The notes beneath the pieces are model-generated. The model was not told the origin of the DNA. It ran no database searches and saw only the letters and a program-made list of their open reading frames with translations. DNA of 61,790 bases, counting the filler, from Platydemus manokwari (taxonomy: Eukaryota): assembly GCA_037951405.1 (NCBI GenBank). It is 6 parts of 6 records of this genome, joined end to end, with 100 filler letters (N's around TTAATTAATTAA, not from the genome) between each part and the next. Parts side by side here need not be neighbours in the genome. Positions count along the whole stretch, not along the records: positions 10,118 to 19,809 come from JBBMOY011217100.1; 5 more parts are not named here. One strand, written 5' to 3'. Each line of letters opens with the position of its first letter. The first letter of the stretch is position 1. Position numbers and translations under genes: made by a program. Below, one piece after another: positions 1,738 to 52,955 of the stretch.

Positions 1738-2478
1738 TTATGGTCTCACCAAATGATATCCATGCCAAATTTGTGATCCATTGTTCCAACTTTTTGGCAA
1801 TGTACTTTTGACATACGTAACTAACACACATTGATTCTCAATTACTTCATAATAAAACGATTTGCAATGGATATTTTGTAGGCATCTATAAATATAATTA
1901 TAAGTTTTTAATAAAACATAAAATACATACAAAATTCCACAGTGCACTTTATTTTTTGCAATGACTTTATCATAGCAACCCAAATCCTTGTCATTGTTAA
2001 AGATTTTTATATCATTCTTTATGAAGTTCTTTGAATTGATGATGACGGTATTATCAAATGTACATAGAAAATAAACAGTCCTAGTACAACTTATATCTGA
2101 AAGCTTTTTTTCGTAAATTGAGGTACAATCTTTTGGCTCTAATTTACTCCATAAATCATCATTAACAGATAAAGACCCATCAATATTCAACCATCCTTTC
2201 TTATTAATAATTCTTTCTTCAAATAAATCGGTAAGACCTGTATAATAATGAGTATTTTTCTTGAAGACACCGATAAATTTAATGGCTTCTATTTCACTTT
2301 CCAATAGTAATCTACCACTGATATTATAACAGAATTCACTGGCGGCACATATGTTTTTCTTTTCATCTTTAGACACATAAATACACAAATTCTCATACCG
2401 TTTGTATACACTTGGACAGCTTAAACAATCCGAAAACCGAACACCCCAAATAACTATCATAAGAATTTGACAGATCAT
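1738..2478 (-). CDS. Secreted C-type lectin domain + C-terminal PAN/apple-like domain protein; probable 45-nt intron at 1886-1930
   Basis: Hydrophobic N-terminus and CTLD cysteine pattern (CP..Y...CIY; A..FC...GRL; W..DGS; DC...L.DISC...YFLC), then a PAN-like C.GIL/CLQNIHCKSFYY....QCVL segment. The GTATGT...TATAG intron is at the same position as in the paralog at ~51.35 kb. Confidence 0.8.
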   Translation of the reverse strand: MICQILMIVIWGVRFSDCLSCPSVYKRYENLCIYVSKDEKKNICAASEFCYNISGRLLLESEIEAIKFIGVFKKNTHYYTGLTDLFEERIINKKGWLNIDGSLSVNDDLWSKLEPKDCTSIYEKKLSDISCTRTVYFLCTFDNTVIINSKNFIKNDIKIFNNDKDLGCYDKVIAKNKVHCGILYVFYVLLKTYNYIYRCLQNIHCKSFYYEVIENQCVLVTYVKSTLPKSWNNGSQIWHGYHLVRP

Positions 2479-4267
2479 ATCTGTAATGATATAAGACTAA
2501 ATACCATTGATAATATATGAAGCATCAATAGCCAATGAAATATCTGCAAGGATACAATTTTTAAATATTTTTTTCCATTTCTAAAGGATTTAAAAAAATA
2601 AAAATAAAAGTAAAAACATTTTATAAATTTAAAGATTTTTGCTATTCAAAGTATTGTTACTTCCCTATCAATGTTTTTTAAAAATCGATCTTCAATAAAT
2701 AAGCAATATCTTTAATGTCAGCTCAATGTTTTATGCATATCAAGACTGCAATTTGGAAGGAGACTCCAGATAATTAAATCATCAAAACATTTAACAAATG
2801 ATCATTTAGCTTACCTGGTAGTATTTTAATTTATTTTTAGATAAATTCCAATGTAATGATAAAACAGTCTAAGAATAAAACAAGTAAATACAAAAACTAA
2901 AGCTAAGGTTGAACATATTTATACGACATTTATTGATTATTAAGTTTTTCCAACATCACTAACAAAGCAGCGACAGTAGTGTAAAGACATGTAGTTTAAA
3001 ATTTACAGTCCACTGATGTTTTCGGAGGGAATCTTTAGACTGTCGTTTGTCTAAGTAGTACAATTAATTCGCTTTCTACGCGAAAACACACTCACTGTTG
3101 TGATTATGGAAGGCTCTAAATTTGATTCAAAGTAATCTATAATACAGTGAAGTGCTGAGCGCCACGTATCTAGAATCTAATGTATATATATAATTTAAAT
3201 AACAATAAATTCATAGAAATAAAAATATTAATTTACCAAAATACAAATTTCAAATTGGCCAAAACTTTAAGCTTTGTTGGCTTTGCTAACAAAAGTGAAA
3301 ACATAAAGAAAAACAAAAATTAAGAAAAACCTTTCAAAAGTCACATCCATTCCATTATTAAAATAGCAAAAATTGTAAGGAAAAATATTAAAACAAACAA
3401 AACCAATTTAAAACAGATTCAAGTAGAAAAGGATTGGAGAATTAATTGCTAACATCAATGCATATAGAGAAACATATATAAGTTTGAAGTAATTTCAGTC
3501 GTTCACAATGCACTATATATATATACCCTCAAAAGAAAAGAAATACTTTCAAATTCCTTAGCCTCTCCGACCGCGATTCCAAATACTTTGTCAAACAAAT
3601 GTCAGTCTAAGACACCCGTCATTGTGCTCGAATTTGGCACCACCATTAAAAGGACATACTTGTTAAAGTGCCGGACTGGTCAAACTTAGAAGTTAGAGGA
3701 GATTCCAATTAACACGGGCGTGAGAAACTGTTCTTAAGCCTTGACAAAGACAGAAATCAGTGATAAAACTCACTGACCGTTGATGCAAACTTCGATGTTT
3801 GAAAATTTGTGTCTCTGAGCTTCAATGCTAAAAAGGCAATAAATCACTTTCACAAATTTTCCAGGCAGTTTTTCCGGCGAAACAGGAAGTGAACAAAATC
3901 CAGTAGATCAAACTGAAGATTCCTAGATGAGATCAATCTACATCAATCAATTCAACCTGGTCAATTACTGATAAATTTCTACTCATAAGAGTCAAAATCA
4001 ATAAATCTAATACGAATATTGATTGAAGCTGATCGAAGAGGAGTCCAGTAGATCTAGTAATTCGAATTGGATTGGTTGATTTATATACCTTAAACCTCAC
4101 ATTTCCAAAATTTAGGTTATAGCAGCTGGGTTACATTATAAAATAATAATTACTCCACAATTATTTCTCAACTTCTCATACCCAAGCAAAGTTGATAAAA
4201 ATATGAAATTCTATTTAACGAACTTACTTGATTTTTAGAAGTGATTGCGCTTTACAGAAAAATGGAT

Positions 4268-4436
4268 GCTAATTTCTTTTAAAGTTGATTCTAAATTAAT
4301 GTGCTTTGTGTGAAGAAATGTTGATATAAAAGAGAAATCTAATCATCTAAGGCTTAGATTATTAGATTTCCCTTTTATATAATCATTTCTTCACACAAAC
4401 AACATTAATTTAGAATCAACTTTAAAAGAAATAAGC
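4268..4436. repeat. Near-perfect 169-bp palindrome (84-bp arms, 1-nt centre at 4352)
   Basis: 4268-4351 aligned by hand to the reverse complement of 4353-4436 gives 7 mismatches in 84 positions. Confidence 0.92.
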
Positions 4437-10017: not shown

Positions 10018-10117
10018 NNNNNNNNNNNNNNNNNNNNNNNNNNNNNNNNNNNNNNNNNNNNTTAATTAATTAANNNNNNNNNNNNNNNNNNNNNNNNNNN
10101 NNNNNNNNNNNNNNNNN
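10018..10117. other. Assembly spacer (44 N + TTAATTAATTAA + 44 N)
   Basis: Identical 100-nt linker with stops in all six frames, present five times in the window. Confidence 0.97.
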
Positions 10118-10944
10118 GTTTAAATGATTTGGTAAAACAAAAACTTTAAACAACTAAAAAACATGAATAACTTTTGACTCAGCCTAATATATCTAACCTC
10201 ACAGATTAAAAGATAATTATTAAGTCTAAATTCCATCAATACTATTAATTTCACTATCTGAGTATAATACAAGATTGCCTGTGTTTCCTTGCTCTTCCCA
10301 ACACTCACAGTAATAATAATATTTTAAAACACATAAGATTTATCGATGATATTATAAAATTTATGAGAAACGAGTACATGTTTTTGAAATTTTGCACTCA
10401 TAGCAAATGTATGTAGTGATTTATTATGTTGGGTTTTGGTACTAAAAAACAACTCATTCAAAAGACAGTAATTTGAAAATGAATTTTTTAATTATGTATA
10501 AGAGTATTTTACATTAAATAATATTGAATATTTTTTGTATAAATTTACAGAAGTTCTGCGAGTGACATAAATTAAATACAATATAAATTATATCCAAAAT
10601 AATATTGTATTACCCGTTTAAAATACATATTAAAATAACACAACTTTTAAAATTTATCCTATAATAAAAATGCTCATAAAATAATAATAAATAACCCGTT
10701 ATACATGTTGGGTTTTTGGAACAAACATTATTCTGGAACATTTGATTTGCATGAATTTTTATCGAGTGTATAAAAGTAGCGAATTTTATTGCTAATTATA
10801 TTTTTTTATCTTTATTTTCTCTTTCGTTCTGGACAAAGGTTAACAAAATATAAACAATTTATAAATTGAATTCTTAAAAAATAAAATAGAATTCTTAATC
10901 TAAATGATTTTGTGAAATCATAAATTAGAACCGTTTATAATTAA

Positions 10945-11198
10945 CCCTAAAAATAATCATAACCCGAAAATATTTAACCCAACAACTAAAAAAAGCCCCT
11001 ATAAAAAATACCCAGATATTAAAATCACCCGCATAAAAATAAGTTACCCCTATTTTTGAATAAATGAATTCGGCTGGCAACAAGAAATAAACCCTGAATA
11101 AAATAAATTCCCTTTATTAAATATTAATATCCACCCGTATAATGCGATGACAACCCGCGTTCAAAAGAAATTCGTTTGGATTAAAATGAAAAGAGCCC
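10945..11198. repeat. Quasi-periodic CCC (minus-strand GGG) tract array at the 3' end of the LTR element
   Basis: C3-4 tracts start at 10945, 10963, 10978, 10996, 11011, 11028, 11047, 11092, 11110, 11134, 11154 and 11196 in an A/T-rich background. Confidence 0.6.
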
Positions 11199-11573
11199 TC
11201 ATTTTAATCGAAATTCGGGCTGTAAAATCAGTAGTCTCCGAGCTGCCTGTTAAAACATACCCACTTGTTAATCGTAATCAACATTCGAAGTATTCGTTGC
11301 CGAAGCCAATTTCCCTGTTGCCAGTATATGCCAAGGTTTATCTGGAGGATCAATTTTGATAATTGATATTAAATTCGTTCGAGAAGAAGTCCAAGGATCG
11401 AGTAAGATAATTCCTGTAAAATCATTATACATCTACAACATCAACATCGTATATTCTTCCTATTTATAGGGTTAAACCAAAAGTCCTTTTATAAACGGTT
11501 CTACTCCTCTTGGGAGCATTGTTAATTTATTGGCATAAAAGAAACTCGTTTCAAAAATGATAATGGGCAATGA

Positions 11574-12153
11574 TCATTTTTTATCATATTGTACACAAGT
11601 GGTTCCATCTGTTTGGCAGGATGGGAATTCTGAATTACAAGATGGGTATTGTGTCATTGTTCCCGTGGTCAAGTCAAAAGTAGCTTCATATGTCCGTAGC
11701 TCTATTTGGTAGTCTTCTATGTCAACTACATGGGAGATATGTTCTCCTTTCCTATATTTTGGACGGCCTATACATGTTCCTTCCGGTTTGATGTGGCCTC
11801 CTCTGGTTATTGTTTCTGCCATTATTGATCCCACTTTTACCATTAACTTTAATTCATTATCTTTTCGTAGTTTCTCAGTATCAAATGCTTCATTACAATT
11901 TTCTGGTGAAATTTTAATACTTATAGGTATTACCTTAGTATCCAGAATAGTTGTTCTGCTGAATGCTCCACAGTAGTACTCGAAGACAGCTCGAGTGACT
12001 CGGCATTCCTTAACAGTTGTTCTGTTGTTCTTTTCCTTGATAAACGGAGTAGTTCTCTTTTGGTCCTTTAGTAACTTTATATGTGTGTACCGTTGGGCAG
12101 TTAATAAGATTTACTAAAGAGTATATAGTAGATAGCTTTGGTTTGGCACAGCC
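11574..12153 (-). pseudogene. Envelope-like glycoprotein N-terminal ectodomain, chuvirus-glycoprotein-like; one frameshift near 12020-12035, C-terminal part broken or deleted
   Basis: Hand translation: LTA*GCAKPKLSTIYSLVNLINCPT...VYQ / RTTVKECRVTRAVFEYYCGAFS...ISPENCNEAFDT...TITRGGHIKPEGTCIG...HVVDIEDYQIELRTYEATF...CNSEFPSC. Motif order matches my recollection of chuviral-type G (AYDC...SLL.V..C; C.I.I.R..YYCG..S; IS...C; G....G.C.G; VV.....I.L). Confidence 0.7.
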
Positions 12154-12852
12154 TTATGCTGTAAGCATAGATGTTTTATTTATCAATCCCAATATTATAA
12201 CCAGTTTTAGTAATGTACTCATAAACCCTTCATTTAGTCCTCCTAGAGTTTCTATTCCAGTTATTGGGTTAGGTGGTTTTTGAATAAAGTTTTCCCATCC
12301 TCCATTTAATTGTATCCATCCGTTGATAGAGTTGTGTGCTATCCTAGTCATTCGATTGACTGTATCGTTTAATTGATTATCGCTTAGTTGTGATGCTTGT
12401 AGTATTTGATTTACTAGATAGGTTAGAGCAGCTTTAGTTCGTGCTTCCGTTAATCCATCTTGTACTAATTCGTTTATTAGAGTTTGTGGGTCGTTATCCT
12501 TATCGTTTATTGCCTTCCTAATTCGAGGTAAATATTTCTTTATTTCTACAATGAGTTCTTCATATCCTTCGAGTGAAACCCTTGGTAATTTGGTATTTTG
12601 AGGTTCCACTCCTCTTGCTAATTTTAGTAAAGTTTCTTTTATACTGCTTTTTACAGATGGCATTGTTTCGTCTGCTATGTTTCTTAATATTCTACTTTTT
12701 AGTTTAGTACCTACTTTTGGGTTTATTAGTTCCGTTGGTGGTTGAATTTTAATTATTTGAGAGTGAGGTGGTCTACCTCTTTTTCGTTGCCTTCTATCTC
12801 TTGGTTCATGTGGTTCGTTTCTTTGATTTGTTTCATTTTCGTCAATTAGATA
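12154..12852 (-). CDS. Bcl-2-like domain within the retroelement frame (ATG-initiated ORF 12154-12663; frame open from 12852), preceded by an AT-hook and followed by a hydrophobic segment
   Basis: ELVQDGLTEARTKAALTY resembles BH1 ELFRDGVNWGRIVAFFSF. WIQLNGGWENFI resembles BH2 WIQENGGWDTFV. E-to-W spacing is 51 aa versus 52 in Bcl-xL. Hydrophobic tail FMSTLLKLVIILGLI. Confidence 0.7.
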   Translation of the reverse strand, partial: YLIDENETNQRNEPHEPRDRRQRKRGRPPHSQIIKIQPPTELINPKVGTKLKSRILRNIADETMPSVKSSIKETLLKLARGVEPQNTKLPRVSLEGYEELIVEIKKYLPRIRKAINDKDNDPQTLINELVQDGLTEARTKAALTYLVNQILQASQLSDNQLNDTVNRMTRIAHNSINGWIQLNGGWENFIQKPPNPITGIETLGGLNEGFMSTLLKLVIILGLINKTSMLTA

Positions 12853-13915
12853 TTAATTTCTTGGTAGTTCGTCAAGTAGATTATCAGTTTCTATTATTAA
12901 TACGTTTGGTGTATTTAGGTCTGCCGTCGGCGGTAAAGTTTCATGTGGCGGTATAGTTTCATCTATGTCCACCTGAGATGGCTGGAGTTGAGTTTCTTCT
13001 ACTTGCGGAATTATTCCTTAATCTAATATCGGGATTGTGACTCTTTTCCAGTTTTTGTTAGTAGTAGGAACATTAATTACTTGTATTGATATTGTATATC
13101 CTGGTAGACATCCTATATCTACTAAGTATTCGTCATCGTCTATCGGTATTCCCATGCGGCTATAACGAATGGGTCCCGAGGTTGTTTTTACTCAATTATG
13201 TCATTTCTTAATCTTTTAGTTTTAGCGAATATGGAATAGTGGTTTATCCAGCTTCCGCCGTATTGCGGAGTCCTGTATGAGTACTGAGATCGGTTCTTAA
13301 ATCCTATTGCTATTTCTCATTGCGAGTCCGTTAAGTCGTAGTATTATCTGTTTACGTGGTAGGTTTACTTAGTTGATTTGTTAGTAAAGGCTCTAATTTT
13401 CTAATGTTTCGACAGGAGCAGTGACATATACAATACTCTCAAGCATTCTAAGTATTTTTTCTTGATCGATTATTCTTTGAGCTAATTCATTTTCGACTTC
13501 AGCTGGTAATTGTAATAGCTCTCTTTTTTCTGCCTGTGTCATTTCAATTGTGACTAGTGTGTTTTCTGTGTCTAGTGCTTTAATTTTTTTGGTATGATTA
13601 TTAATATTTTTAGTTAGATCCGTTTTGGGATCATAATTCGTAGGCATGATTATCATATCATCCTGTTTATGTAAGGTGTGCTGACCTATCTCTGTATCTT
13701 CGGCGGCTCAGCCGATTGTATATTTTGTATGAAGTTGGCTTCTGAGGCCTCATTAAGAAGTGACGTTTCGAGAGTATCGGCGGCTGCAGCAGTAGTAAGT
13801 GATATATCGTTATCTTTAGCTAAGGAGTTTTGTTTTTCTATTTTTAACTTGTTATTTCCTCCGATTGTCTTAGTTTACTATATGAGCTTGTTGAGAGTAT
13901 TACATTATAATGTTC

Positions 13916-15036
13916 CTATCGCGTACGTAGTCGCTCTAGTCTTATTCGTTCATCGTGAACTTGTTGCTCAAGTTGCACAAGTTTATCATATTTTTCCTGT
14001 TGTGTTAAACACACTTTTTGTATTATAGGCTTTTGTTGAGTATCCTTTGAATTAGTAGGGCATGATCGTCCTATATGTTCGAATTGGTTGCACCTAAAAC
14101 ATTTTATTTGTCCCTTAAGATTTACATTATCTCTTTTATCATTATTTTCCGTGATTGTTTTACCTCGGCAGATTAACGCGAGATGTCCCATTTTTACGCA
14201 TTTATCGCATTTTAAGTTGGTACATTTACATTGGCTTGTCGAGTGGTTTGTTCGACCACATTTGTTACATGGTATCGGTTTACCGTTTATATCTTTCATT
14301 GATCTGCATTCATTTGTTCGATGTCCAGTACGGAGGCATTCCTGACATTTTAAATTGGGTTTAGTATTGTTTTCATTTTTTTGTCCTTTAAAATTATTAT
14401 TATTAATATTGTTATTATTATTTTGCCACTTATTTTTTTATTTCTTGTACAGCGATTCCAAATTCGTTATTCCTCATGCTTGCATCCGCTATTCGTGCCT
14501 GGTGTACTAATTGTCCAAATTCATCTCCTATATGTAAGCTGAGTGCGTTTTTTATGGTTAAGTAGTCCGTCCCACAATTGATCTTTTACCATTTCTTCTT
14601 TATCGGGATCCCAATTTACTCTAGGGCCAAAAGCTCTTTCAGCTAATATTGTAAGTTGGTTGGCGAATTCCCCTATATGTTCCCCTGGTAATTGCTTCCG
14701 ATTTTTATATTGCTGCCTATACATTCTTCCTATGTTGGGTGGTAGAAGCGCTTCTCCGAAGGCTTGTTTAAAGTTATTCCACACTTGTAGTGGGGTGTCT
14801 CGGTTCATGATACGATTATATTGGTCCTTTGCCATACCTGTTAGATATATAGGCAGCTTTCTAATCATCTGATAATTGGTAATGTCGGCCATAAACTCGT
14901 GAAATCTACTAGGTTCCCCATTGTAAGGTTCTAATTTCATTTTTATATGTTGTTGCGCATTTGGTATGATTCTGGGAATCACATTTACCACTGGTGGTCG
15001 AATATTAGGTTGTTGTACGTTTTCTTCTTTCATCAT
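13916..15036 (-). pseudogene. gag: gag (capsid + four CX2CX4HX4C zinc knuckles), frameshifted around 14520 and 14430
   Basis: LEPYNGEP..F..F, LPIYLTGMAK..Y, W..FKQAF, RKQLPGEHIGEFANQL..LA and VKDQLWDGL are retrotransposon Gag motifs. Knuckles: CQECLRTGHRTNEC, CNKCGRTNHSTSQC, CDKCVKMGHLALIC, CFRCNQFEHIGRSC. Confidence 0.88.
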
Positions 15037-15041
15037 TATAT

Positions 15042-15059
15042 ATCACGTCGGGCTCACCA
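15042..15059 (-). promoter_or_regulatory. Primer-binding site complementary to the tRNA-Trp 3' end
   Basis: TGGTGAGCCCGACGTGAT matches the canonical tRNA-Trp PBS TGGTGACCCCGACGTGAT at 17/18. It lies 2 nt after ...CAACA and 5 nt before the gag ATG. Confidence 0.82.
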
Positions 15060-15061
15060 CT

Positions 15062-15157
15062 TGTTGAGTTCTCTTAGTGTTCGGGTTAGTTTACGAATAA
15101 CTTATTCTATATCCCAACTTATGCGTGTTCTCCTTATTTGTCAAATATTTTGCAACA
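15062..15157 (-). repeat. Candidate short (96-bp) 5' LTR
   Basis: Minus strand begins TGTTG and ends CAACA (5-bp inverted termini) directly before the PBS. No second copy is visible, so the 5' boundary is unconfirmed. Confidence 0.5.
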
Positions 15158-16074
15158 CCTGACTCCAAAGGTGCAGTGTATAATAACTATCCTTTATAAA
15201 AATTGAGATATATAATATATAACATATATAATATATAATATATAATGAAACAACTCGACTTCGTTTAAAAATATATTAAGATTTAGTTTAGTTATCAAAT
15301 ACAATATCAACAATTGATAAGATTGATATTAATAGACAATAGATGCTAATTAACAAATAACAAGCCTCGATGGGGGACGATTTGATGATTAATTGATTTA
15401 TGTTAAAACGCTAGATTTTACAGACTATATGTAGATAGAGTGTTAAATTTTGTTTGGTCTTTTATGGGTATCCCTGTAAGAGCCCTTTAATCGATTTTAT
15501 TGGGTTTTAGGCCTACTTGGCACCATAACCCCTTAGATCAAGTTTGTTTTGAATTTTATTTCTTTTTTGGTGCGAGTACCTCTAGTTGAACTGGGTTCAA
15601 TCTAGAGTTTTTATGTGATGGATGCAAATATGCTATGATATTTGTTTTAATAGGTAGAGCTTGAATAATTGATTTACAATTTGGTTTTTTTGATTCAAAA
15701 TAAAATTCAAATAAAATTAACTTGTTAATAGTTTAAATTGTTTAATATATACCAGTACAACTATAATTGTTGTCGGTTATTGAATTGCGATATAATAAAA
15801 TTGATTGTTATTGAAATTAATAGTATATCAAATCAATGTTTTAATAGAGATTATACTTATTAAATATGAAATTGCTTAACTCTTATTATTATCAATGATA
15901 AATCCTTACAATGATGTTGATAATTGCGGTCTGGTGATAGGCACTTTCTTTTACTTCTTCTTGTTCCCCATTTGGCTCCTTTTCTCAAAATTTATCTGCT
16001 TTTTCTGAGAGAACTTTGCTTTCTATGGCTCCTAGTTCTGTTTTCTTTAGTAACGTTTCTTGTTAAGTTGTTCC

Positions 16075-16296
16075 GCGAAGCTTCTAGTATCGTTATACCG
16101 TGATGGTTCTTTTATAGTAGAGAATAGTTTCGATTGTAGATAACAAGATTAATGCTTTTTCGTCTGAATAATAGTTGAAGTAATTCTTCTGCGAAGCTTC
16201 TTGTATCGGGATGGTCCTTTTATAGTAGAAGATTGAGTTGACTGTCAATAGTGAGATAAATGATTTTCCGTCTGAATAATAGTTGAGACAATTCTT
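16075..16296. repeat. Diverged tandem duplication, ~116-bp period
   Basis: Both units share GCGAAGCTTCT.GTATCG...GATGGT.CTTTTATAGTAGA...CGTCTGAATAATAGTTGA. Confidence 0.8.
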
Positions 16297-18463
16297 TAGG
16301 TGCGTTGTGTCAGATAACTAATTGTCCTTGATGACTTGGTATTGGGTAACTAATTATTTTTGTTGAATTGCTGTCACTGATAAGGCAAGTAATTATGAGA
16401 GGCAATTAGGTTTCTTTTGATTAGTGCGGTTATTTCTAAATTAGTTGTTTGTGGTGGTTAATTTAATTTTCTTGTCTTTTTATATTAATTTAATTTCTTC
16501 TTCGATTTCTTTTTTCTCTATTTTTTGTCTAAATTATTGCTATTTTTGCTTCAAAAATCCTCATTTTTCTATTTTTAAATCATGTATAAATTATGTTACT
16601 ATTTTTGTAATTATTTATTACTCTTTTTGTTATTTATTAACTTGTAGGGTTATTTTAGGAGTAAAAATCTGTAGTGACTAATATAGCTAATTTTTAATTA
16701 TCGTTATCTCCTTTTACTTTTAATTAATAATTAACATATTTTTATTTAATGACAATGACAATGCTCAATGTTCCATGTTCATTTTTATTTATGACAATGA
16801 TAATGACAACCATGTTCCCAACAATGTTCCCAACAATTATTACAATACTAGCATCAATTCAATGCCTGGAGAATGACCGAGCTTCTTCCAGACCGAAAGT
16901 CCTTTCACTGCTAATTTAAATCTGACAAAAAGTTATTCTCAAGCAGCCAGGCAAAACAGAGTCTAGCTACAAGAATTTCTTAAAAATTTTCATCTCCAAA
17001 CTTTTGGTAGAACAAGGGTTCACAATTGATTTTTAAATTTCTTGTAAAACAGAAAGCTGAAATATTTGTGCTTCTTCAGTTCAAATTCAATGCATAAAGA
17101 ATTCACAATACAAATTCGTTATAAGCCAATCGAGTAGTGAGTCTTATGATAATTGTGAACTCTTTTCCTTCATTCAAGCAATGTGAAATCAGTTCCTTTT
17201 CTTATTCTTGAGATCTAATCACTTCATTGGGTCATCTCAAACTCGTTAAGAAACATGCGTTGTGGTCAAGGTACCCTATATGTCGAACCTCCAGCGAATT
17301 TAAAATGTATTATAATAAATCTTCTCATGAATTTCAAATGCTCCATCTATTATGTAATTAATATTGCTCAAATCTATGATAAATATATAAAACTTACCCA
17401 AACAGAGTAATCCAATATTTCAAGAAATCAAGCAGAAATATGTGAATTGTTTGTTTTTATAACAATTGTTTACGTCCTAGTGTAAACATAAAAGTCTAAA
17501 GAACATTAGAATAAAGTATATTGTGTTGTCTGCTCGAACTATAATCGAGATGAAATGTAAACGTGCTAAAATCAAATTTTGAATCAAGAGCTTCTACCCT
17601 TTGTATTTCAAATACATTTTTAATCAGAAGTTATTCAGTGGCTTCACTTACTGTGCAACTATTATTAGAAAATAAGTCAGATATAAATTAAACCCACGTT
17701 AGAAAATCAGTAGTTTAAGTCATGACAATAAATAAATTCAGTTTTTCATTGTATTGTTTGTACAGTGTAATAAAAATCAAGTCGGCAATGCACAAGCTAA
17801 TTGATCAAAGTAAGAAAAGCAATTATAATAGGAAATTATAAGTAACCGACTTGTTTTTAATACCCGTGAATTTTAATCTTTTAAAACTCAAAGAAATGAC
17901 AGAGCATACATTATCATATAAACAAGGCAATGATAAAAAGTTAATAATCTGGCAGACGACAAATTGAATTAAAATTAAGTTTTTAAACAAGTTTGAAGCA
18001 CACCTTTGGTCAAAACGTTTTGGTTTTGGATTAAAAACTAGAACAACAAATTTTCAAACTTTTAATATATAAAACACTGAAATACTTAGCTCTGATGTTC
18101 TTATTCTGAATCTTTTAAGATATTTCAGAAATATTAAAATAAATTTAACAAAACTACCTTTTTAATTTAATTTTGCTACATAAATTTTATCTTTATTAAC
18201 TCTATATTATCAATGTAATCTTTTTTAACTTTTCTCTAAATAATTTTGTGATACAAATTTAAAATATTTAAATAACTTTTTTAACAAACCAATCATATTT
18301 TATAATAAAACTTGGATAATAAAATTAAATTAAAATTTATTTTAACTTTTTAAACTCTGTATTTAGGTGTTTGTTTTGTTATTTGTTATTTATTTTCAAG
18401 AAAATCATTTTGTAGGTATTGCTTGATTTTAAACACTAATAATTAGATTTAATTGAACAGAAG

Positions 18464-18631
18464 ATGCCCCACGCTAATGTTTGGCACTCTCATCCGAAAA
18501 ACTATGGTCAAGGAAGCAGACAATGCAGAGTTTGCTCTAATAGGCATGGATTGATAAGGAAATACGGTTTAAACATGTGCAGAAGATGCTTCAGAGAGAA
18601 TGCACAAATAATTGGTTTTAAAAAGGCATAA
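18464..18631 (+). CDS. RPS29: 40S ribosomal protein S29 (uS14)
   Basis: [55 protein letters not shown], with the CxxC...CxxC zinc motif. Probable 45-nt 5'UTR intron at 18416-18460. Too short for the supplied ORF track. Confidence 0.97.
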
Positions 18632-19809
18632 ATTTTAAAATAAATATTTGGAAATTTGATATTCATTATTTCTTTTTGATTTTATTATTTATATTATAAA
18701 TGTCAAGCATTATATAGTTGTAAAAACCTATATTTTAAAAATCATATTGTAAACAGGTTTGAATGTATAGTATTATTTGACTAATTAAAGTGTTATTTGT
18801 TAATTGTCTTTGGTTAACCTCAGCCAAGTTTCGAAGAGTATTTTAAAGTACAATTTCGTTTAATAGTTTCGGAAAGTTGTCAAATTTTCTATTTTATTTA
18901 CTTGAGCAAATAATGTGACAAAAATTTAATAAAGTTAGGTTTAATAATAATTATCATTGTTAACCATCGTCAATCACAATAACTGGGAATAACTTATTAA
19001 TTTAAATAATTTCAAATAGCATAGCAACGAAAATAAGAACAAAATTGAATAGAGTTATCATCAATTTTCTATTAAATTTTTACAAGAAAATAAAGCATTA
19101 TAATGACTATTACTATCGAAAACATTGTTTCAGTTTACCATCGTTTTCAATGCATTCAAGCTACGAAATAAAGTTCAAATATCATGTGACGTTTATTTTG
19201 AATAAGAATTAAATATGAAGATTTGTTTACGAAGCCATTTATATCTATCATTTTTGTATAATTTATAAATTTTTAAAGTTAGTTGTTATCTTTGATTTAG
19301 ATTAAAATTGTTAAATTATGAAATTGGTTTTTAAATATGGTTTTTAAATTAATATTTTTAATAAATTGTAATGATCTTGTACAAATACATTGCTATCAAT
19401 TTTTGTTGTAGTTTATCGTTGTTGGTGTACTGGTGTGGTAAGCATGCAATAAATTTTATATAGACATTTTTTTGATTTTACACCAAAAAATTATTTTTTT
19501 ACCAACTCTATTCTATTATTTTTTGTCATAATTTATGAAATTTTCATTAAATATTTTTAAAAAATGGTTAGCGATAGTTAATGACTTACAATTGGATTTT
19601 TAATGTATTTATTATATTTTCTTAACTTTTCTAGCCTCAAATATACCAATTCTTCGGTTTTCAGTGGTCTTCGATAAAAATTATAATTATTTAGTGAAAA
19701 TTGAGAAATCAATATTACATAATTCATTTAATTTCTTTTATATTATCGTGTTATTTACAGTTTTATTTTGATATGTTGTCGATAGTTAAAACTTTAAATT
19801 ATTAAAAAT

Positions 19810-19909
19810 NNNNNNNNNNNNNNNNNNNNNNNNNNNNNNNNNNNNNNNNNNNNTTAATTAATTAANNNNNNNNNNNNNNNNNNNNNNNNNNNNNNNNNNN
19901 NNNNNNNNN
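19810..19909. other. Assembly spacer
   Basis: N44-TTAATTAATTAA-N44. Confidence 0.97.
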
Positions 19910-22900: not shown

Positions 22901-23364
22901 TTTTGAGCTCTGATGATTTTTATAACAAAAATCTGTGATCAAACAAAACAGGTAATTATAAATTTTGAAAATCTATCAATAATTGCAAATATTTCAAAAC
23001 ACGTCTAAATTAATGGCTAGATATGTTAATTCGACCTAACTTTTGAGAATAATTAAAAATTAGAGAATGTTATGAAGTTCTTCATTGTATTCGGATTAAT
23101 ATAAATAAATGAAATAAATTGTTTATCCATTTTTTAGTTTTGTTTTCTTGATTAATTTGTTAATAAACAGACTGACTTTAAATTATTTTTAATTTTAAAA
23201 TAAAGGTTGTAATATTGAAATATAAATTTATTTAATTTTTAAACAACGAATTACATTTTCAATTAAAGCGAAACATTAAATAATTTTGAGTTGTTGTTCA
23301 TGATTCAGATAAAAATATGTCGAAATAAATTTGTTTTAAAATATAATAAAAAAATTTATTTATT

Positions 23365-24138
23365 ATGAACAATGATAAATGCCAAATCAAGAAACGATCT
23401 CGAAAAGATATGTCTTTCAAAGAAAAAAAGGAACTGATAGAACAATTAAAGAATGAAACAAATAAAAACCAAAGATACTTGGCCAAAAAGTATCGGATTT
23501 CATTAGGAATGATAAATAAGCTGTTGAGAAGTACAAATTTAATCGGTGATAGTGAGTGTGAGCTACGGAATTTGGAAAGAAAACGAAGAGCACCGCTCAG
23601 AAAGACAAAAGAAATCGAGCCGATTCTGTACAGATGGTTCCAAAGGCAACAGGCTATGAATATTACATTGAAGAAAGATGATTTTAAAACGAAAGCCTTA
23701 GAAATAGCATTGAAATTGAAAGTCAACGATTTTAGAGCTTCTGACGGTTGGATGTGTGCCTTTCTGAAGAGAAATCTTATAACATTAGACGGCGGTTTTA
23801 CTAAAATCAATACAATTCATGATGGTTTTAATAGAAAAATAGTGAAATCAGAAAGTAATGATGTTTGTATGTCAAACCAAAGTACTTCAGTCAAAGAGCA
23901 ATCTAATGAGAATATCCATATTTATTTAACAGATCATATTTCAGAACAGAATATTCAGTATATCAAAGAAGAACCAGTGTTACATGATACTAGTGAAGAT
24001 TATAATTTAAAAAATGATGATATCTGCAAGTGTATTTTAAAATTAGAAAGATTCTTTATGTTAAACCTTCCCCACAAAATAGACCAAATTCGGGCAATCA
24101 AAGAATCATTTATTGATAATTTTTTGCTGACTAAATGA
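23365..24138 (+). CDS. CENP-B/Tigger/pogo-type DNA-binding protein (psq-type HTH + CENP-B HTH), no DDE domain
   Basis: RKDMSFKEKKELIE...QRYLAKKYRISLGMINKLL; EIEPILYRWF....R...I.......KALEIA.KL...DFRASDGWMCAFLKRN. Intact 257-aa ORF that ends without a catalytic domain. Confidence 0.85.
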   Translation: MNNDKCQIKKRSRKDMSFKEKKELIEQLKNETNKNQRYLAKKYRISLGMINKLLRSTNLIGDSECELRNLERKRRAPLRKTKEIEPILYRWFQRQQAMNITLKKDDFKTKALEIALKLKVNDFRASDGWMCAFLKRNLITLDGGFTKINTIHDGFNRKIVKSESNDVCMSNQSTSVKEQSNENIHIYLTDHISEQNIQYIKEEPVLHDTSEDYNLKNDDICKCILKLERFFMLNLPHKIDQIRAIKESFIDNFLLTK

Positions 24139-31091: not shown

Positions 31092-31191
31092 NNNNNNNNN
31101 NNNNNNNNNNNNNNNNNNNNNNNNNNNNNNNNNNNTTAATTAATTAANNNNNNNNNNNNNNNNNNNNNNNNNNNNNNNNNNNNNNNNNNNN
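31092..31191. other. Assembly spacer
   Basis: N44-TTAATTAATTAA-N44. Confidence 0.97.
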
Positions 31192-32950: not shown

Positions 32951-33221
32951 CAATAATATGCCATGTAAAACCCAATCAAGAAACTCAATCCATAAAGCGA
33001 GTTTAACCATAATATTTCAACAAATTATATATTTTTTAAAATATACTTTTTATTTTATATCCATTAAATAATTTAAAAATTTATTTGCAACATTTTCAAA
33101 TTATCAATTTGTTTTTCATCGAATTTCTTGACTTACTGTGCACTTCTTGTTATTAAGTTAGCTATTTCTCTAAAGTCTTATGTCGAATTCTCTTTTAATT
33201 CCGTACTGCCATATTATTTAG

Positions 33222-33427
33222 TGTCTATCTGTGCCTCTCTCTGTCTCTATCTATCTCTCTCGCTCACTCCCCCTCTTTCTCTGTCTCTCTGTCTCTCTCT
33301 CTCTGTTTCTCTGTCGCTGTCTCTCTCGCTCACTCTCTGTCTGTCTCTCTCTGTCTCTCTCTGTTTCTCTGTTTCTGTCTCTCTCGCTCACTCTCTGTCT
33401 GTCTCTGTCTCTCTGTCTCTCTGCCTG

Positions 33428-33481
<54 letters not shown>
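33222..33481. repeat. Compound microsatellite (CT/CTGT)n followed by (TA)n
   Basis: Directly visible in the sequence. Confidence 0.97.
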
Positions 33482-33486
<5 letters not shown>

Positions 33487-36400
33487 GAACTAATCGGAAT
33501 TGAATTCAAATTCCTGTTGGCAATTTAAACCGGCGCTATTTTATGGAATGTAAATTAAAAACGAGTGAAGAGGTTCGACCAGAATATTATGCATAATATT
33601 TAAAAAATTATATCGTTTTAATATATTCAATTATTTAAAAATAGACCACCTAAATTTTAAAATTCTCACATATTATATAACGATTTTTTCTGAATTTTTA
33701 CAGAAAACTAGGTAAGAATTATATTAGAGGTTACCTTAGAAATGGCATTATTCAAAATATCGATTAATCAAGGCTTTGGAAGAAAACAAAATACTTAATA
33801 TAAATCATTACTTAAATATTCAACTGAAATATTTAAAGAACCTTATTTTTCAAAATCGATAAGTGAAATTCAAAATGAATTCTAATCTTTCGTAATAGAT
33901 GATAATGCAAATTGAAACAACACAATTGATCTAATTATTTATTCAAAATAAAATATCTGAGTCTCGTTATTTTTAGATCATAAAAAAATCTAGTTCATCA
34001 AAAAAAATCGATGTTTTTATTCCAAAACGAGATTATGTTTCCATGGGTTTCTGTAAAGGTATTTATAAGCAAATAGTATTTTTTCATCTGTAGAAATAAT
34101 TATAATTGGTTTTGGTTGACGATCATTTTGAATTTCGAAATAAATCGAATTATTATTTCTGAAAATGAAAATAATATCTTGTTCCTAAACAGACATTCCG
34201 ACAGTAAAGATTTAATCTAAGTCCTGATCGACTGATTTAGATCATAAAAACAATAAAATTCAGAAAATACTTTCTCAAATAAAACAAACTCAGTCTTAAC
34301 TTGTTTGATTGATGGCATCGTTGTTTGTGAGAACTATGGTTTCAAAAATGCGTTTGTGACGTTTGAGAATGTCCATCAAAATTTAATCTCTTTATCCAAT
34401 AAGGGGTAATAAAATCTTATTTTTAAATGATTTCGCTATTTAATAGTCCAGTGGACGTTAAAATTTTATGATTGATGACCAGTGAGACTTAGGATTTATG
34501 TTCCAAAAGTGTGTTACACAACATTATATGAATGTTTTGAATGGTTTGTTGTGATATCGAATCCAGTTGTAATTATTACAGGTTCCAAAATTTCCTAAAA
34601 ATTGTTGAGTGAGATGAAGTTCTGGGGAAAAAAACGGATTTGCACCTTGGAACATTTGCATGCCTACACAACCATATAGGAATGGTAACCAACCAATCAA
34701 AGTGTGGTTAGATGATAAACGACAATTAGGAAAAGGAGCATATCCACACAACAACACGTATGGGTACTGACCAATCCCACTCATTCAAAAATTTGAAATT
34801 CCAATAGGAAAAGCAAATATCAGACTAAAATGTGATACAACATGATAAAAAAATTACACAGATCTCGGATATAAATATCGATGTAAAGATAGCCAATTGC
34901 CAACTTGAATCCAAGTTTTTAATCGATATTTTGTAAAACCTACCGAATCTTAAGTGTAAGTTGTATTGAACATTATACGATCGAAATACAATATTAGCCT
35001 TCTATCTTGGTATCAGAGATTAGATAATTGTTTAAGGGATCCAACAAAATGATTGGTTCGACTTCAATAATAAACGAATTATCCACCAAAGGAAAGGTGG
35101 GTTCAAAGTTCTACATGATTCTGAAGAGTATGAATGACTCTAAAACCACTCTATCGGCAAACTATTGGATTGGACTTGATATTTGTTCATTCATCTAATC
35201 AGATTTTAAATTTTTTTCATAAACAAACTATTTTTATTGAATTTTTTTTCAACTATTTTTTAACATTTTTACTTTTGTCTTGTTAAGAAAATCTTCAATG
35301 AAACAAATTGGGTCACTCCGTGAAATTAATATTACAACAATTTTCCCAGGAATATAGGCTATGGATAATACATCGATAATTTTCGAAATGATACTGTAAG
35401 CATATTGATTGTTTATTTCATCTTGATATTGTGTTTCCACAATGTACTTTTAAACTTTGCATGAAATTGATTGCACTCCATTGTTGCACACCGACTGCAG
35501 ATTAATGCAGTGAACTAACTCTGTTAATACATTTTTGAAAACAGAGAAATACACAAAGGAAATGATTCAAGATTTAATATTAAAAATCAAAATCAATTTC
35601 ATTCCATTTTTTTCAACACCTTGTTTGAAATATTTTTCTTCTTATGATCAAATCTCAACTTTCCACTTTTAAATAATCACTGGAAATTATAAAAATTATA
35701 TTCCGTGCTATTATCCAATATTTTTCATTCTGTTATTCCTAAATTTAAAATTAATTGAAACTTTTCAAGCGGATAGTTTTTTCTGTCATGGGAATTGTAG
35801 TGCAATAACGAGTAAAACTATTTATTGATTTATTAAGAAAAGAGAATAACTAATTATAACATAATTTTCTCTAGAAACAGTTCGTTTACTTTTCTGAACG
35901 AGATTGCAATTATCTGAACCACGAATTCTTCGTTTCTGCATAAAGCATTTCTATTATATATAAACCTTTATTCATCAGTCTGTACGCTTATGACTGCTAA
36001 GGCTTGAAATAAATATATTTTCATGAATACCACTAGTCATAAAATGCGTTAAATTTTTGGTTTCAATTTATTGGTAATTCAAAACTTTTTATTGCCAGTT
36101 GTTCATGTGTATACGTTGGTATGCATGAATTTATTATTGATATTTTCAATTCGTTTTGTTTCTGATTGGTTGATATGTAACTTGCTTTATGATTAAAGGT
36201 TTTTAAAAGTTTCCATGGAAAAGAATTTTACAAGGTAATTAATTCGTTAGATTTTGAACGCGTAACTTTGGTTCTTAATTAGTAAAACGTTATTTCATAA
36301 CTGAATTAAGTCACTCCAAAAACCAGATTAGAAGTCCATATTTCTATGACCACAGGCAGGTTGTCATGACAATCCCATAATCAACTTGAAAAACCGAAGT

Positions 36401-39721: not shown

Positions 39722-40455
39722 TATTTTTGATAATCTCTGCAATGAAATTGGAATTCGTAGTATTTGGAAATTATATTGAACGATTGAATGATCGCGGTCC
39801 CCCACCATGTATAGCAGAATGGGCCATCATTGTGTATCTAGCAGGTTGTTATTTTTTTTAAAAATAAACCCAAACTTTGAATATTATTTTTATTACCAGG
39901 TTACATATGGCAAGAAATCAAACAACTCTATTCCAATGGTTTAAGAGCTTACTTGGCTGACATGTGGAACCTGTTAGATTTCTCCACAAATGCTCTATAT
40001 ACGGCTACACTTGCTCTTCGCTCCTGTGCTTATTTCAAAGTATATTCATCATTTTAATTTATATAATTCATATGATAATCACAGGTGAACGGGAGTCCTG
40101 ATAGAAATGTAGAGAGAAAGCTTTGGGAGGCTTATGAGCCAGTATTAATATCTGAATGCTTATTTGCTAGTGCCACCATTTTCAGTGTGTTAAAACTAGT
40201 ATTTATGTTTACTATAAATCCAAGACTTGGACCTCTTCAAATATCGCTTGGTCGAATGTTGAGAGATATTCTAAATTTCTTCTCGCTTTATATGTTGGTT
40301 TTAGTTGCCTATGGTTTCGGTATTCATCAATTGCTATGGTTTTATTCTCATGAGCGCCAAGAAAGATGCAAATCAGTGGTGTTTGATTACAATTTAACTG
40401 GGCAGGATCTTGAACGCTATCAATATTGTACCACCAGAGGCAGATACTTTTCAAA
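39722..40455 (+). CDS. TRPC-type (canonical TRP) cation channel, partial: exons 39722-39844, 39900-40039, 40085-40455 (S1-S5 region)
   Basis: Spliced: FLIISAM...RGPPPCIAEWAIIVYLAG|YIWQEIKQLYSNGLRAYLADMWNLLDFSTNALY...FK|V...WEAYEPVLISECLFA.A.IFS.LKL...INPRLGPLQISLGRMLRDI. GT-AG introns of 55 and 45 nt with consistent phases. Confidence 0.93.
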
Positions 40456-40587
40456 GTAATTCATTGCCATTTATCTTTTACTAATAAATTTCAATTATAT
40501 TTGTCATGCGTTAATAAGATTAGCTTTGAAATATTTTTTGTTTGTGAAACCATATAATGGTTTACAAAGTTATTAATATTTATAGAA

Positions 40588-40641: not shown

Positions 40642-40741
40642 NNNNNNNNNNNNNNNNNNNNNNNNNNNNNNNNNNNNNNNNNNNNTTAATTAATTAANNN
40701 NNNNNNNNNNNNNNNNNNNNNNNNNNNNNNNNNNNNNNNNN
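40642..40741. other. Assembly spacer
   Basis: N44-TTAATTAATTAA-N44. Confidence 0.97.
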
Positions 40742-49293: not shown

Positions 49294-50809
49294 TTTTAAG
49301 TTCTTGTAAACTCAATAGAAATTAAATTTATTGGAAAATTTAGTAATCAGTAAAGAAATATTTGATTTAATAAAACAATTACTTTTGAAATAATTTTTTA
49401 ATTAAAATTTTGATTTGAGATGAATCAATAATTAAATTAAAATATATTAATATAATAATAATTTCTTATTTACATGTATATATATAACATAATAAATAAA
49501 ATTATTATAAAGAAATAAATATGAAAAATGATTTTTGAATGACAAAGTAGAATTAAATGATGATTAAAAACTTGCACAACCAAGAAATTAAATTTCGTTT
49601 TTGCATATAAATTAAAAGATTGATGGGGAGTACAGGTAGGTATACAATCACACATAAGAACAGTCTAAGAAGTAAGGCATACGTATGAATAAGAAACCTT
49701 AAAAAGCAAAGTTATTTTATACGCATTCACAATTAAAAAATATTGTTATGATAATAAATGCTCGATAGTCACATATCTCTCAGTATTTCATAATTTTCAC
49801 AATATCATTTCAGTAACCTTCATATCCATTGACTTCTTAGTTTCTTTATTTATTAAAGTCTTATCCATTTGTTTTGATAGCAAAAATTAGTTTTTATACT
49901 TCTAATTACGATTTGGGAGTGAAGATGTTAGCACATCACACTATACTCTCATTAATTGAAATATGCGTTCTCATTGTTTATAATGGTAGACAGGTTCATG
50001 ATTTGTGATCGATATGTATCAAAAATATTTAAAAAGGAATTATGAAGGGTTTCATTAGAGCTTTCAGTAGCAATGGTTGATTTCATTTCAATAATATTCT
50101 TAGGAATTAAAGTTGGAGTATTAACATTGTAATTAATTCTAGCGTGTTGATCAGTCATTTTCTTAAATTACCCTTTGTGTATCGTACCAGTTTCTTTATC
50201 ATACCGGAATCTATCATCCTGGAAATGATAACTAATGCCTAACATGTCTTCGAAATTGTTTTATTTATTCTTATACTAAGATTAAACAATATGAATTTAA
50301 ATTTATTTTATAAAAACACAGATTCTATTGTGCATAGTCTTAACAAATTTAATAAAGCATTTTAAATCGGCATGCCTTGGCTTTCAATAAAATAAGATAA
50401 ATCGATATAAAAACATGATTCACGAATATTATCCTCGTTTAAAACAAATTATTTTACAATTATATATCGAGATACCCACGAAAACAACACCAACTATTTG
50501 TGTATATTTCAATAAAACAATGAGATTTCACTTTAATATTCTTCAGTCTCTTTTATTGCCAATATTATGATTGATGTTTACATTATCCTTATAAAGTCAT
50601 TATTATTTTAAATTTTTTTATATTTACAATAGCAATGACCACATTTTTGTGCCACAGATTTATTTTTTTGGAAAATTTAAGCGAAATAAAATATTTAAAC
50701 AAAAGATATTTCATATTTAGTTAAATTAAAAATTTCATTTCCTGACACTTATTATTGGTTGAAATAATCTACATCACGATAGTAGTATTCAATTTTTGTC
50801 ATTTTGAAA

Positions 50810-51542
50810 ATGATTGTTTTTATCTTATTGTTCCTGTACTGCGACCATCAAAAGCAATGGAGTGTCCTGTTAACTTCAAACCTTGTGGATCAATTTGCTA
50901 TTATGTTGAAGATCAATTTGAAAACTTTTTGCAGGGCTTCTGAAACATGTTATTCAATGAATGGAACATTAGCAATGGATACGGAAATACAATTACTCTG
51001 GTCATGTCTAAATAAGAATGTTCAATTCATTACTGGAAAAACGGATTTGTTAAATGAACGATATCGCAATAAAACTCAATGGATTAATAATGATGGATCA
51101 TTATTTGGAAATACGAAATTGTGTTGCGTAAACCAACCGGAAAATTTTAAAGGTAATGAAGACTGTACGCGTAGTACGAATATAGGTCTTGGTGATGTTA
51201 AATGTAATGAAGGTGGTGTTGTTGTGTGTGTTAGCGTTAATTATTTGAAGAACAATTCCAAACGATTCAAAATACATTCCAAAAGCTTCTTTAATAACAA
51301 TCATGTTATAAAATAATCAATTCGAAAAGTAAATTGAATTGCGGCGCACTGTAAACGATTTTTTCAATTGTAACATTTTATTGATATTTAATTGTAGATG
51401 CCTTAAAGATGATAACTGCAAATCGTTCTACTACAATGATTCCGGAAAACAATGCGCTTTGGCTCAATATGCTCTCAGCACTCTATCGAGACATTGGAAT
51501 AATGGAAAAGATATTTGGCATGGATATCATATAATTCCTTAA
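50810..51542 (+). pseudogene. Frameshifted paralog of the C-type lectin + PAN gene at 1738-2478
   Basis: Fragments in different frames: MIVFILLFL / MECPVNFKPCGSICYYVE / KTFCRASETC...TGKTDLLNER...WINNDGSL / CLKDDNCKSFYY...QCAL...WNNGKDIWHGYHIIP*. Same intron position and near-identical C-terminus (WNNG..IWHGYH..P). Confidence 0.82.
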
Positions 51543-52469
51543 TGGAGAATATCATTTATTTCATTTGTTAAGTTATTTAATATTTATTTTGCTGTGGTTT
51601 AGATAAACACAAAACTTTCATCAAATTACTGACATATTTAACTATTTGTTTCATCATTGATATCCATATTAAGTAATCAATGTGTGATATTATAATAATC
51701 AATATTTTAATGATAATAAATGTTGTTATTATGAAGATAATTCTTAGAGCCTTCATTTGAACTTTTATTTTGAATTTCGAAACATAAAATGGAAATTAAC
51801 GAAGAAAGTAAAGAAATGTAAATGGCAAATATTAAATAAATTTTTACTTTATCGAGAAAAATTAATGATTTCAATTAGAATTGTTGAGTAATAATTAGAA
51901 TAATGATAATATTTATATTGATTATATTTAACAATAATTATAAATATTTATTAACAATCAAGAAACACAGAGAAAAGTCATATGATGTTTGATGATCAAT
52001 TGTGGGAATGAATTTATCTGTGTGATTGAATCAAGTGAAGACGTAAAAGATATCGCCAAAATAATTAGCTTATATCGATCGATTTGAGTGCAAATGTAAG
52101 GTTGTTTACACTGCATTGCTAAATCAAATCCTTTAAAGATAGAACACTGACTTGTTCAAAGAATAATTAATCTGCATTGAGTAAATGCAATTCAGTGCAA
52201 GTTCTTTTGAAAATAATCTTTTATTTTCTGCTTATTCATTGTGATTATTCAGAAACCATGATAGTGCCCATTAATTGTATACCATGCTGATTATTTTATT
52301 AACAATATGAAGTTCCTGTGGAATTATTTCAGATAGTCCTTCACATTGCGATCACACTTTTGGATTAGACTTTGACAATTCCTATGGTATGGAAACATTA
52401 AAAATATGTAAAGAACATATGGGGAAGTTGTATAGAAGATGTAGAGGTAATATAAAGCAGAGAAGGAAT

Positions 52470-52855
52470 AAAAATTTTTATATAAAATAATATCTAGAGA
52501 ATTTGATACAGAGATAAATAAGAATTCAGAAAAGAATCACATTAAATTTCCGTAAGTTTATGGATTTTAGTTGGTTTTCCGTTCCTTTGAGGATCTGGTC
52601 GTGGTGTTTTGGTTCATTTAGTCGTAACCCATGCATATTAATTCATAAATCCTTTCTTTAAAAACTTTTATATAAAATAATATCTAGAGAATTTGATACA
52701 GAGATAAATAAGAATTCAGAAAAGAATCATATTAAATTTCCGTAAGTTTATGGATTTTAGTTGGTTTTCCGTTCCTTTGAGGATCTGGTCGTGGTGTTGT
52801 AAAGAAAGGATTTATGAATTAATATGCATGGGTTACGACTAAATGAACCAAAACA
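52470..52855. repeat. ~139-bp direct duplication (190-bp offset) plus an exact inverted copy of the intervening segment, at a contig end
   Basis: 52470-52608 matches 52660-52798 with 2 mismatches. 52801-52855 is the reverse complement of ~52605-52659. Confidence 0.9.
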
Positions 52856-52955
52856 NNNNNNNNNNNNNNNNNNNNNNNNNNNNNNNNNNNNNNNNNNNNT
52901 TAATTAATTAANNNNNNNNNNNNNNNNNNNNNNNNNNNNNNNNNNNNNNNNNNNN
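52856..52955. other. Assembly spacer
   Basis: N44-TTAATTAATTAA-N44. Confidence 0.97.

Follow-up and report, generated by a model that had tools for sequence, protein, structure and literature searches.

A Bcl-2-like segment between gag and env of a decayed, probably Burro-type LTR retroelement in Platydemus manokwari

How a segment resembling Bcl-2 comes to lie within a retroelement, and what it could do there, is the question raised by a locus of Platydemus manokwari (assembly GCA_037951405.1). The window, meaning the whole stretch of DNA that was analysed, is 61,790 nucleotides long including filler and joins six parts of six records; the locus lies in the part at positions 10,118 to 19,809 (JBBMOY011217100.1). 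An earlier note had read, on the minus strand, a BH1-like motif, ELVQDGLTEARTKAALTY (12471-12418), and a BH2-like motif, WIQLNGGWENF (12318-12286), with 51 residues between them, and had proposed that they mark a Bcl-2-like domain between gag and env of a long terminal repeat (LTR) retroelement. Both motifs were recovered on re-reading the 232-codon stop-to-stop frame in which they lie (12852-12157, minus strand), and the proposed setting is borne out by matches to the PDB and to TIGR00865 and by flanking matches to PF03732, PF00098 and PF24664 on the same strand. Judging from sequence, we conclude that the segment is a Bcl-2-like stretch, corresponding to α4-α8, between gag and env of an LTR retroelement. 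The element is a decayed, pol-less gypsy LTR copy that is dead as a polyprotein gene, and the present copy itself most likely makes no product. It probably belongs to the planarian Burro-type family.

When the full frame was searched against the PDB with phmmer, Bcl-2 and Bcl-xL occupied the best 60 of 100 rows (top E 0.004), and frame residues 123-191 aligned with one gap position. The trimmed domain gave E 9e-4 in the same kind of search, and TIGR00865 (bcl-2) matched with E 2.3e-4, well below its whole-protein cut-off. Both the BH2 motif and the BH1-BH2 spacing agree with Bcl-2 and Bcl-xL; similarity is limited to α4-α8, with no BH3 or BH4 match detected in the segment. Scanning all six frames of the window for a loose BH1 plus BH2 pattern pair gave one occurrence, against none in 200 triplet shuffles; the control is lenient because the patterns were derived from the motifs themselves.

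Among 1.84 billion representatives searched in full with phmmer, two matched, P0004 and P0005, both ENA singletons. P0004 (86 aa) is 41% identical to window-frame residues 38-108. P0005 (248 aa) aligns colinearly with the frame of the window along 240 residues at 26% identity (E 8e-21), and its one open frame holds a PF00452 match at residues 78-141 (E 0.012) followed by PF24664 positions 8-77 at residues 172-244 (E 6.8e-5); the alignment crosses the window stop at 12156-12154, where P0005 is open. Searched against the PDB, P0005 returned Bcl-xL in all 52 rows (top E 0.056), and a three-sequence profile (window, P0005 and P0004) reached Bcl-xL at E 1.9e-5, with the Bcl-2 family in the best 60 of 104 rows. 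Both BH2 Trp residues are retained in P0005. The distance from the BH2 Trp to a hydrophobic core (at 173-183 in P0005) is 35 residues in the window and 37 in P0005, and that from the core to the first env Cys is 21 and 23 residues, respectively. P0005 lies on a 7,233-base ENA contig, and its called product ends early within env. Word-index homolog searches, with length windows that leave out 5,000-residue polyproteins, returned nothing for the Bcl-2-like protein or for env; the ESM Atlas gave nothing usable, and the metagenome and viral contigs searched yielded no related loci. The sole related-locus match for P0005, L001, was rejected as a GC-rich bacterial locus in which the match runs antisense to a long transporter-like frame.

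Several observations weigh against the Bcl-2 assignment. PF00452 scored 14.2-14.8 bits on the window protein (E 0.067 and 0.042) and 16.5 bits on P0005, against a gathering cut-off of 31.4; Dynamin_M outranked it in the window protein, and P0005 lacks a TIGR00865 match. The NWGR of BH1 is TEAR in the window, with Trp and Gly lost, and P0005 retains only the Asn of NWGR, with Lys at the Arg position. Retention of the Arg, to which the earlier note had drawn attention, is thus correct for the window copy and is not a family trait. A single-sequence AlphaFold model had a pLDDT of 39 and its Foldseek output was noise; a three-sequence model had a pLDDT of 45 overall and of 52-69 across α4-α8; and Foldseek returned no match at E<=0.001. 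Both models are all-helical, and 40 of the 41 matches listed for the three-sequence model belong to the Bcl-2 family (E 0.05-0.34, TM-score 0.22-0.37), with canarypox CNP058 among the matches listed. Since Foldseek scores sequence too, this result is consistent with a Bcl-2 fold and is not proof of one. With a Pfam score below cut-off and a degenerate NWGR, 'Bcl-2-like' is the proper label. Weak Pfam rows for Dynamin_M, DUF885 and IL23 were dismissed as helical noise.

The element in which the segment lies has the following parts.

15062-16800, minus strand: probable 5′ LTR, with terminus ...CAACA at 15062 and a putative outer boundary
15042-15059, minus strand: primer-binding-site-like 18-mer, assigned by position
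14521-15042, minus strand: gag capsid region (PF03732, E 4.4e-4), frame disrupted near 14560
13916-14437, minus strand: nucleocapsid with four CX2CX4HX4C knuckles and a short coiled-coil-like stretch after them (PF00098, E 3.5e-8)
13192-13915, minus strand: disrupted linker with several stops and frame changes, Pfam blank or noise
13021-13191, minus strand: possible half-domain of ubiquitin/SUMO type, recognised by eye only
12268-12741, minus strand: Bcl-2-like domain, the sequence match spanning BH1 (12471-12418) to BH2 (12318-12286)
12157-12213, minus strand: hydrophobic segment that opens env (by position a signal sequence), from a Kyte-Doolittle (KD) scan; it sits where a Bcl-2 tail anchor would be
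11574-12153, minus strand: env ectodomain, N-terminal portion (fusion glycoprotein of mononegavirus/gB type; PF24664, E 2.7e-12)
11145-11573, minus strand: probable degraded env continuation, read with X at its many stops and still repetitive in the contigs of a DNA run described below

The LTR-type terminus lies 2 bases ahead of the primer site, the minus-strand A-rich skew reaches ~16800, and a 108-bp tandem repeat (16093-16296) lies inside the probable 5′ LTR. The primer-site-like 18-mer may resemble the 3′ end of tRNA-Trp; no tRNA was found in the window. The PF03732 match in gag is below gathering (20.9 bits, cut-off 24.1); three stretches of the nucleocapsid are above the PF00098 cut-off, and the four knuckles were counted in translation. 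To the eye, 13021-13191 resembles the C-terminal half of a ubiquitin/SUMO fold, at the position of the Ubi2/SUMO-like site of Burro; the region is disrupted and gave no match in Pfam, the PDB or NCBIfam. A single frame leads from 13191 to 12010 and carries the Bcl-2-like segment and env together, with stops at 13020-13018, 12855-12853 and 12156-12154. The env match to PF24664 (Monjiviricetes fusion glycoprotein) covers profile positions 57-194 of 653 and stops short of 11145-11573; env is disrupted by the stop at 12156-12154, a frame change near 12030 and a stop at 11576-11574, and past ~11150 the element is no longer traceable. No pol was recognised by reading among the 19 window frames of at least 90 codons (nine of them Pfam-scanned), and the window has no second LTR. 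Repeat families D2, I1-I10 and I12 were rejected as LTRs, being the gap fillers, of which the window has five identical ones (44 N, a 12-base AT palindrome, 44 N) at 10018-10117, 19810-19909, 31092-31191, 40642-40741 and 52856-52955, roughly every 10 kb; these fillers also account for most of the inverted repeats. In GC content (0.34-0.37) and A-skew the Bcl-2-like segment agrees with gag and env, as expected of a long-resident part of the element, and stands apart from the window as a whole, whose GC of 27.4% is in keeping with planarian genomes (>70% A/T; PMC11410931).

Copies of the family are found in X1, a public DNA-type run that contains the stretch; the run possibly represents the sample from which the window itself comes, and its depth is not copy number, both of which limit the weight of the figures that follow. 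No RNA run is listed as containing the stretch, a result that carries no information on expression. Contigs aligning to 11300-15100 number 534 and cover all 30 bins (57 at 99+% identity, 86 at 95-99%, 162 at 90-95% and 229 under 90%). Those identical to the window have a depth of ~22; ~87%-identical contigs reach 1045 on env (11620-11894) and 1147 on 12461-12741. By bin, depth is 1185-1544 in the Bcl-2-like segment, 336-1854 in gag and 1141-2083 in env. Rows at 12151-12184 with a depth near 1000 lie 79-90 letters from the contig end, so a deep contig spans the junction with env. On the other side, low-depth contigs (13-26) omit parts of the segment (12430-12830, 12298-12517, 12243-13526); other low-depth contigs likewise omit parts of gag and env. 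Because the deep ~87% contigs cover the segment as they cover gag and env, it is a family feature and no one-off retrocopy. We conclude that the Bcl-2-like segment is clearly part of a repeated family. Among 40 of 428 differences, 36 were classified (four rows at or beside the frame break left out), 15 as silent and 21 as not, with four in the Bcl-2-like frame; for these 36 a possible excess of silent changes has p 0.02-0.09 at 25-30% expected.

The 232-codon frame closes with the hydrophobic segment (12213-12157, minus strand), which has a KD value of 2.95 over 11 residues and a short hydrophobic core of 11-15 residues. It had been taken for the tail of the Bcl-2-like protein. The segment is real, but it belongs to the N-terminus of env: the stretch of P0005 that is colinear with it aligns to PF24664 starting at profile position 8, which makes the hydrophobic segment the start of env. 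We conclude from this alignment that it is the env N-terminus and not a free-standing tail, and the idea of a free-standing gene with a tail of its own is replaced by that of a polyprotein domain whose frame continues into env. Ectodomains of gB-type env proteins come after a signal peptide or transmembrane (TM) helix (PMC13524379), and the segment probably plays a signal role. In 4qnq_A, the profile alignment reaches further and places the hydrophobic segment opposite the beginning of the Bcl-xL anchor. Since the same helix aligns with the tail anchor of Bcl-xL, a cut by signal peptidase would leave a Bcl-2-like protein anchored in the endoplasmic reticulum (ER); the segment would be C-terminal to the Bcl-2-like domain solely after such cleavage. 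No statement of a double signal and anchor role was found in a literature search that took in few subscription papers and neither Grohme et al. 2018 nor Jurka 2007.

The earlier note knew of no Bcl-2 homolog in LTR retrotransposons. In fact such a domain is already published, and the present copy is a further member of that kind. Arkhipova and Yushenova 2019 (PMC6431247), citing Jurka 2007 among others, describe Burro-1 to -4/GYPSM1 of Schmidtea mediterranea and a relative in Dugesia tigrina, with BCL2-like motifs in Burro-2, -3 and -4 credited to Grohme et al. 2018. Burro elements are there gypsy LTR retrotransposons of giant size that exceed 30 kb, have two LTRs and carry PR-dUTPase-RT-RH-IN behind env; their order is gag-CCHC-Ubi2/SUMO-BCL2-env (mononegavirus type)-PR, and env follows in frame right behind BCL2, the domain lying within open reading frame 1 (ORF1), whereas other gypsy-like elements have env as an ORF of its own. 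Their Gag has two or three CCHC knuckles, and additional modules include BIR, ankyrin, MATH_TRAF_C or midasin-like, Smc-like and ubiquitin-like domains (ORF1 of the D. tigrina element is without MATH). The same text reports decaying Burro fragments in Dugesia japonica and proposes, as a hypothesis, that Burro interferes with apoptosis and ubiquitination (PMC6431247). BURRO1 is enriched in the intestine and derepressed upon smedwi-2 RNA interference (RNAi) (PMC8532177). As the presence of the domain in an LTR element is published, the copy by itself adds little.

The explanation that best accounts for the locus as a whole, and which we regard as likely, is a Burro-type, in-frame Bcl-2-like domain ahead of env that would be anchored and is predicted to dampen a host pathway. 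In intact family members the domain would be made within a gag-env polyprotein. The hydrophobic segment would be the point at which this polyprotein is inserted into the ER membrane, its Bcl-2-like domain staying in the cytosol and env passing into the lumen; signal peptidase would cut behind the hydrophobic segment, giving the topology of a tail-anchored Bcl-2, and the element protease would separate the domain from Gag. From the cytosolic side, the anchored domain is then predicted to weaken a death or defence pathway of the host. Gly-to-Ala changes in BH1 cripple Bcl-2, and the loss of BH1 Gly and Trp, as far as sequence can tell, argues against ordinary BH3 binding; a BH3-type anti-apoptotic activity has less than an even chance. 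Poxvirus Bcl-2 folds function without BH motifs. Given such motif-less folds, the BH2 residues kept here and the BIR and ubiquitin-like cargo of Burro, a host-directed role of the domain, while predicted, is likely. No functional test of a Burro Bcl-2-like domain (BH3 binding, apoptosis block) was found in the literature, searched mostly without subscription papers. It would go further, and is in our view unlikely, that one helix serves as both env signal and anchor, that Env synthesis frees an ER-anchored, working Bcl-2 that sustains infected planarian cells, and that the cassette is old (26% identity to P0005) and perhaps reaches beyond the described Burros.

A domain without a host target would depart from the favoured explanation in its last step only. 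The captured Bcl-2 fold would then be a structural leader, serving as an anchor, a spacer or a matrix-like link between Gag and Env in processing or budding, and we give this somewhat less than an even chance. The BH1 Trp and Gly are gone in both the window and P0005, and the Arg in P0005 as well; matches cover α4-α8 only, and the domain sits in a fusion with gag on one side and env on the other. Yet the BH2 Trp and the BH1-BH2 spacing are maintained at 26% identity, and the poxvirus folds show that BH motifs can be dispensed with. The BIR, MATH and ubiquitin-like modules of Burro also point to host-directed functions (PMC6431247). BURRO1 RNAi left the smedwi-2(RNAi) phenotype no better, a loosely relevant observation on the side of a leader without host target (PMC8532177).

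That an intronless viral Bcl-2 gene in its own right, complete with tail anchor and stop, was inserted between gag and env is very improbable. The 232 open codons do close directly after a hydrophobic segment that aligns with the Bcl-xL anchor, but the frame extends on both sides, P0005 is open at the matching position and continues into env, neither a start nor a promoter belonging to such a gene was identified, and the Burro domain lies within ORF1 (PMC6431247). It is no more credible that the host domesticated this copy and that the stop after the hydrophobic segment yields a tail-anchored Bcl-2-like protein: at 232 codons the Bcl-2-like stretch exceeds the other open frames of the element (173, 173 and 178 codons), but for a copy in decay that is no great margin, the first Met is at residue 65, and the ~13% divergence from the deep contigs is equal in segment and env. 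Chance likeness between a helical linker and the BH1 and BH2 motifs, or else a single retrocopy of a host gene, would fit the modest single-sequence E-values and the lack of a confident fold but is very improbable, given that an independent relative shows the same weak match, that the profile improves on it, that a BCL2-like annotation is published at the same place (PMC6431247) and that contig coverage is family-wide.

With the favoured explanation, an in-frame Bcl-2-like domain ahead of env, the anatomy offers a concrete mechanism, a signal sequence that is also a tail anchor, by which a retroelement could deliver a modulator of apoptosis or immunity. Its importance is modest; planarian regeneration depends on cell turnover. 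The host of P0005 could widen the range of the Bcl-2-like/env cassette.

Elsewhere in the window, 23350-24138 (plus strand) is an open frame of 262 codons with a Tc5 transposase DNA-binding domain (PF03221, E 8.3e-12) and no DDE match, by its sequence possibly a domesticated pogo/CENP-B-like gene. C-type lectin frames lie at 1738-2496 (minus strand, with a weak PAN match) and 50786-51316 (plus strand), and 40079-40459 (plus strand) is an exon with an Ion_trans match (E 4.5e-6), TRP-channel-like by eye. Repeats include an 84-bp inverted repeat, 92% complementary with arms 1 base apart (4268-4436), a 140-bp direct repeat, 99% identical, that adjoins a gap and may be an assembly artefact (52469-52798), and a TC-rich microsatellite array (33192-33490).

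How does the segment compare with known systems? Like cellular Bcl-xL and Bcl-2 it has α4-α8, the BH1-BH2 spacing, the W...GGW of BH2 and a hydrophobic helix 35 residues past the BH2 Trp; unlike them it has NWGR replaced, a short hydrophobic core and an env ectodomain behind it. Large DNA viruses encode viral Bcl-2 proteins such as BHRF1, KSHV ORF16, A179L and F1L, and the present case likewise combines a virus-like element with a diverged Bcl-2 fold; those proteins, however, are separate DNA-virus genes with tested activity, whereas here a domain of a retroelement polyprotein is predicted from sequence. The signal peptide of mouse mammary tumour virus (MMTV) Rem and the leader of foamy virus Env are long env leaders with functions of their own. 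The domain here would resemble them in being a cytosolic domain ahead of the env signal sequence that signal peptidase may release, but neither leader is Bcl-2-like or fused to Gag. With Burro the element shares Retrotrans_gag and CCHC, a BCL2-like domain, an in-frame mononegavirus-type env placed before the pol site, and tandem repeats; the published order is followed at every point where the copy can be compared. Weighing against that kinship, the window copy has four knuckles against two or three, it ends inside env, so that pol, BIR, ankyrin and the 3′ LTR are not in the window, Pfam found no MATH, midasin or ubiquitin-like match in the disrupted pieces, and the named Burro sequences are absent from all homolog search results, the comparison being one with their description. 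The text of PMC13524379, on errantiviruses with HSV/gB-type env, mentions neither Burro nor planarians nor Bcl. Those errantiviruses resemble the present element in being gypsy elements with a gB-type ectodomain behind a signal peptide or TM helix.
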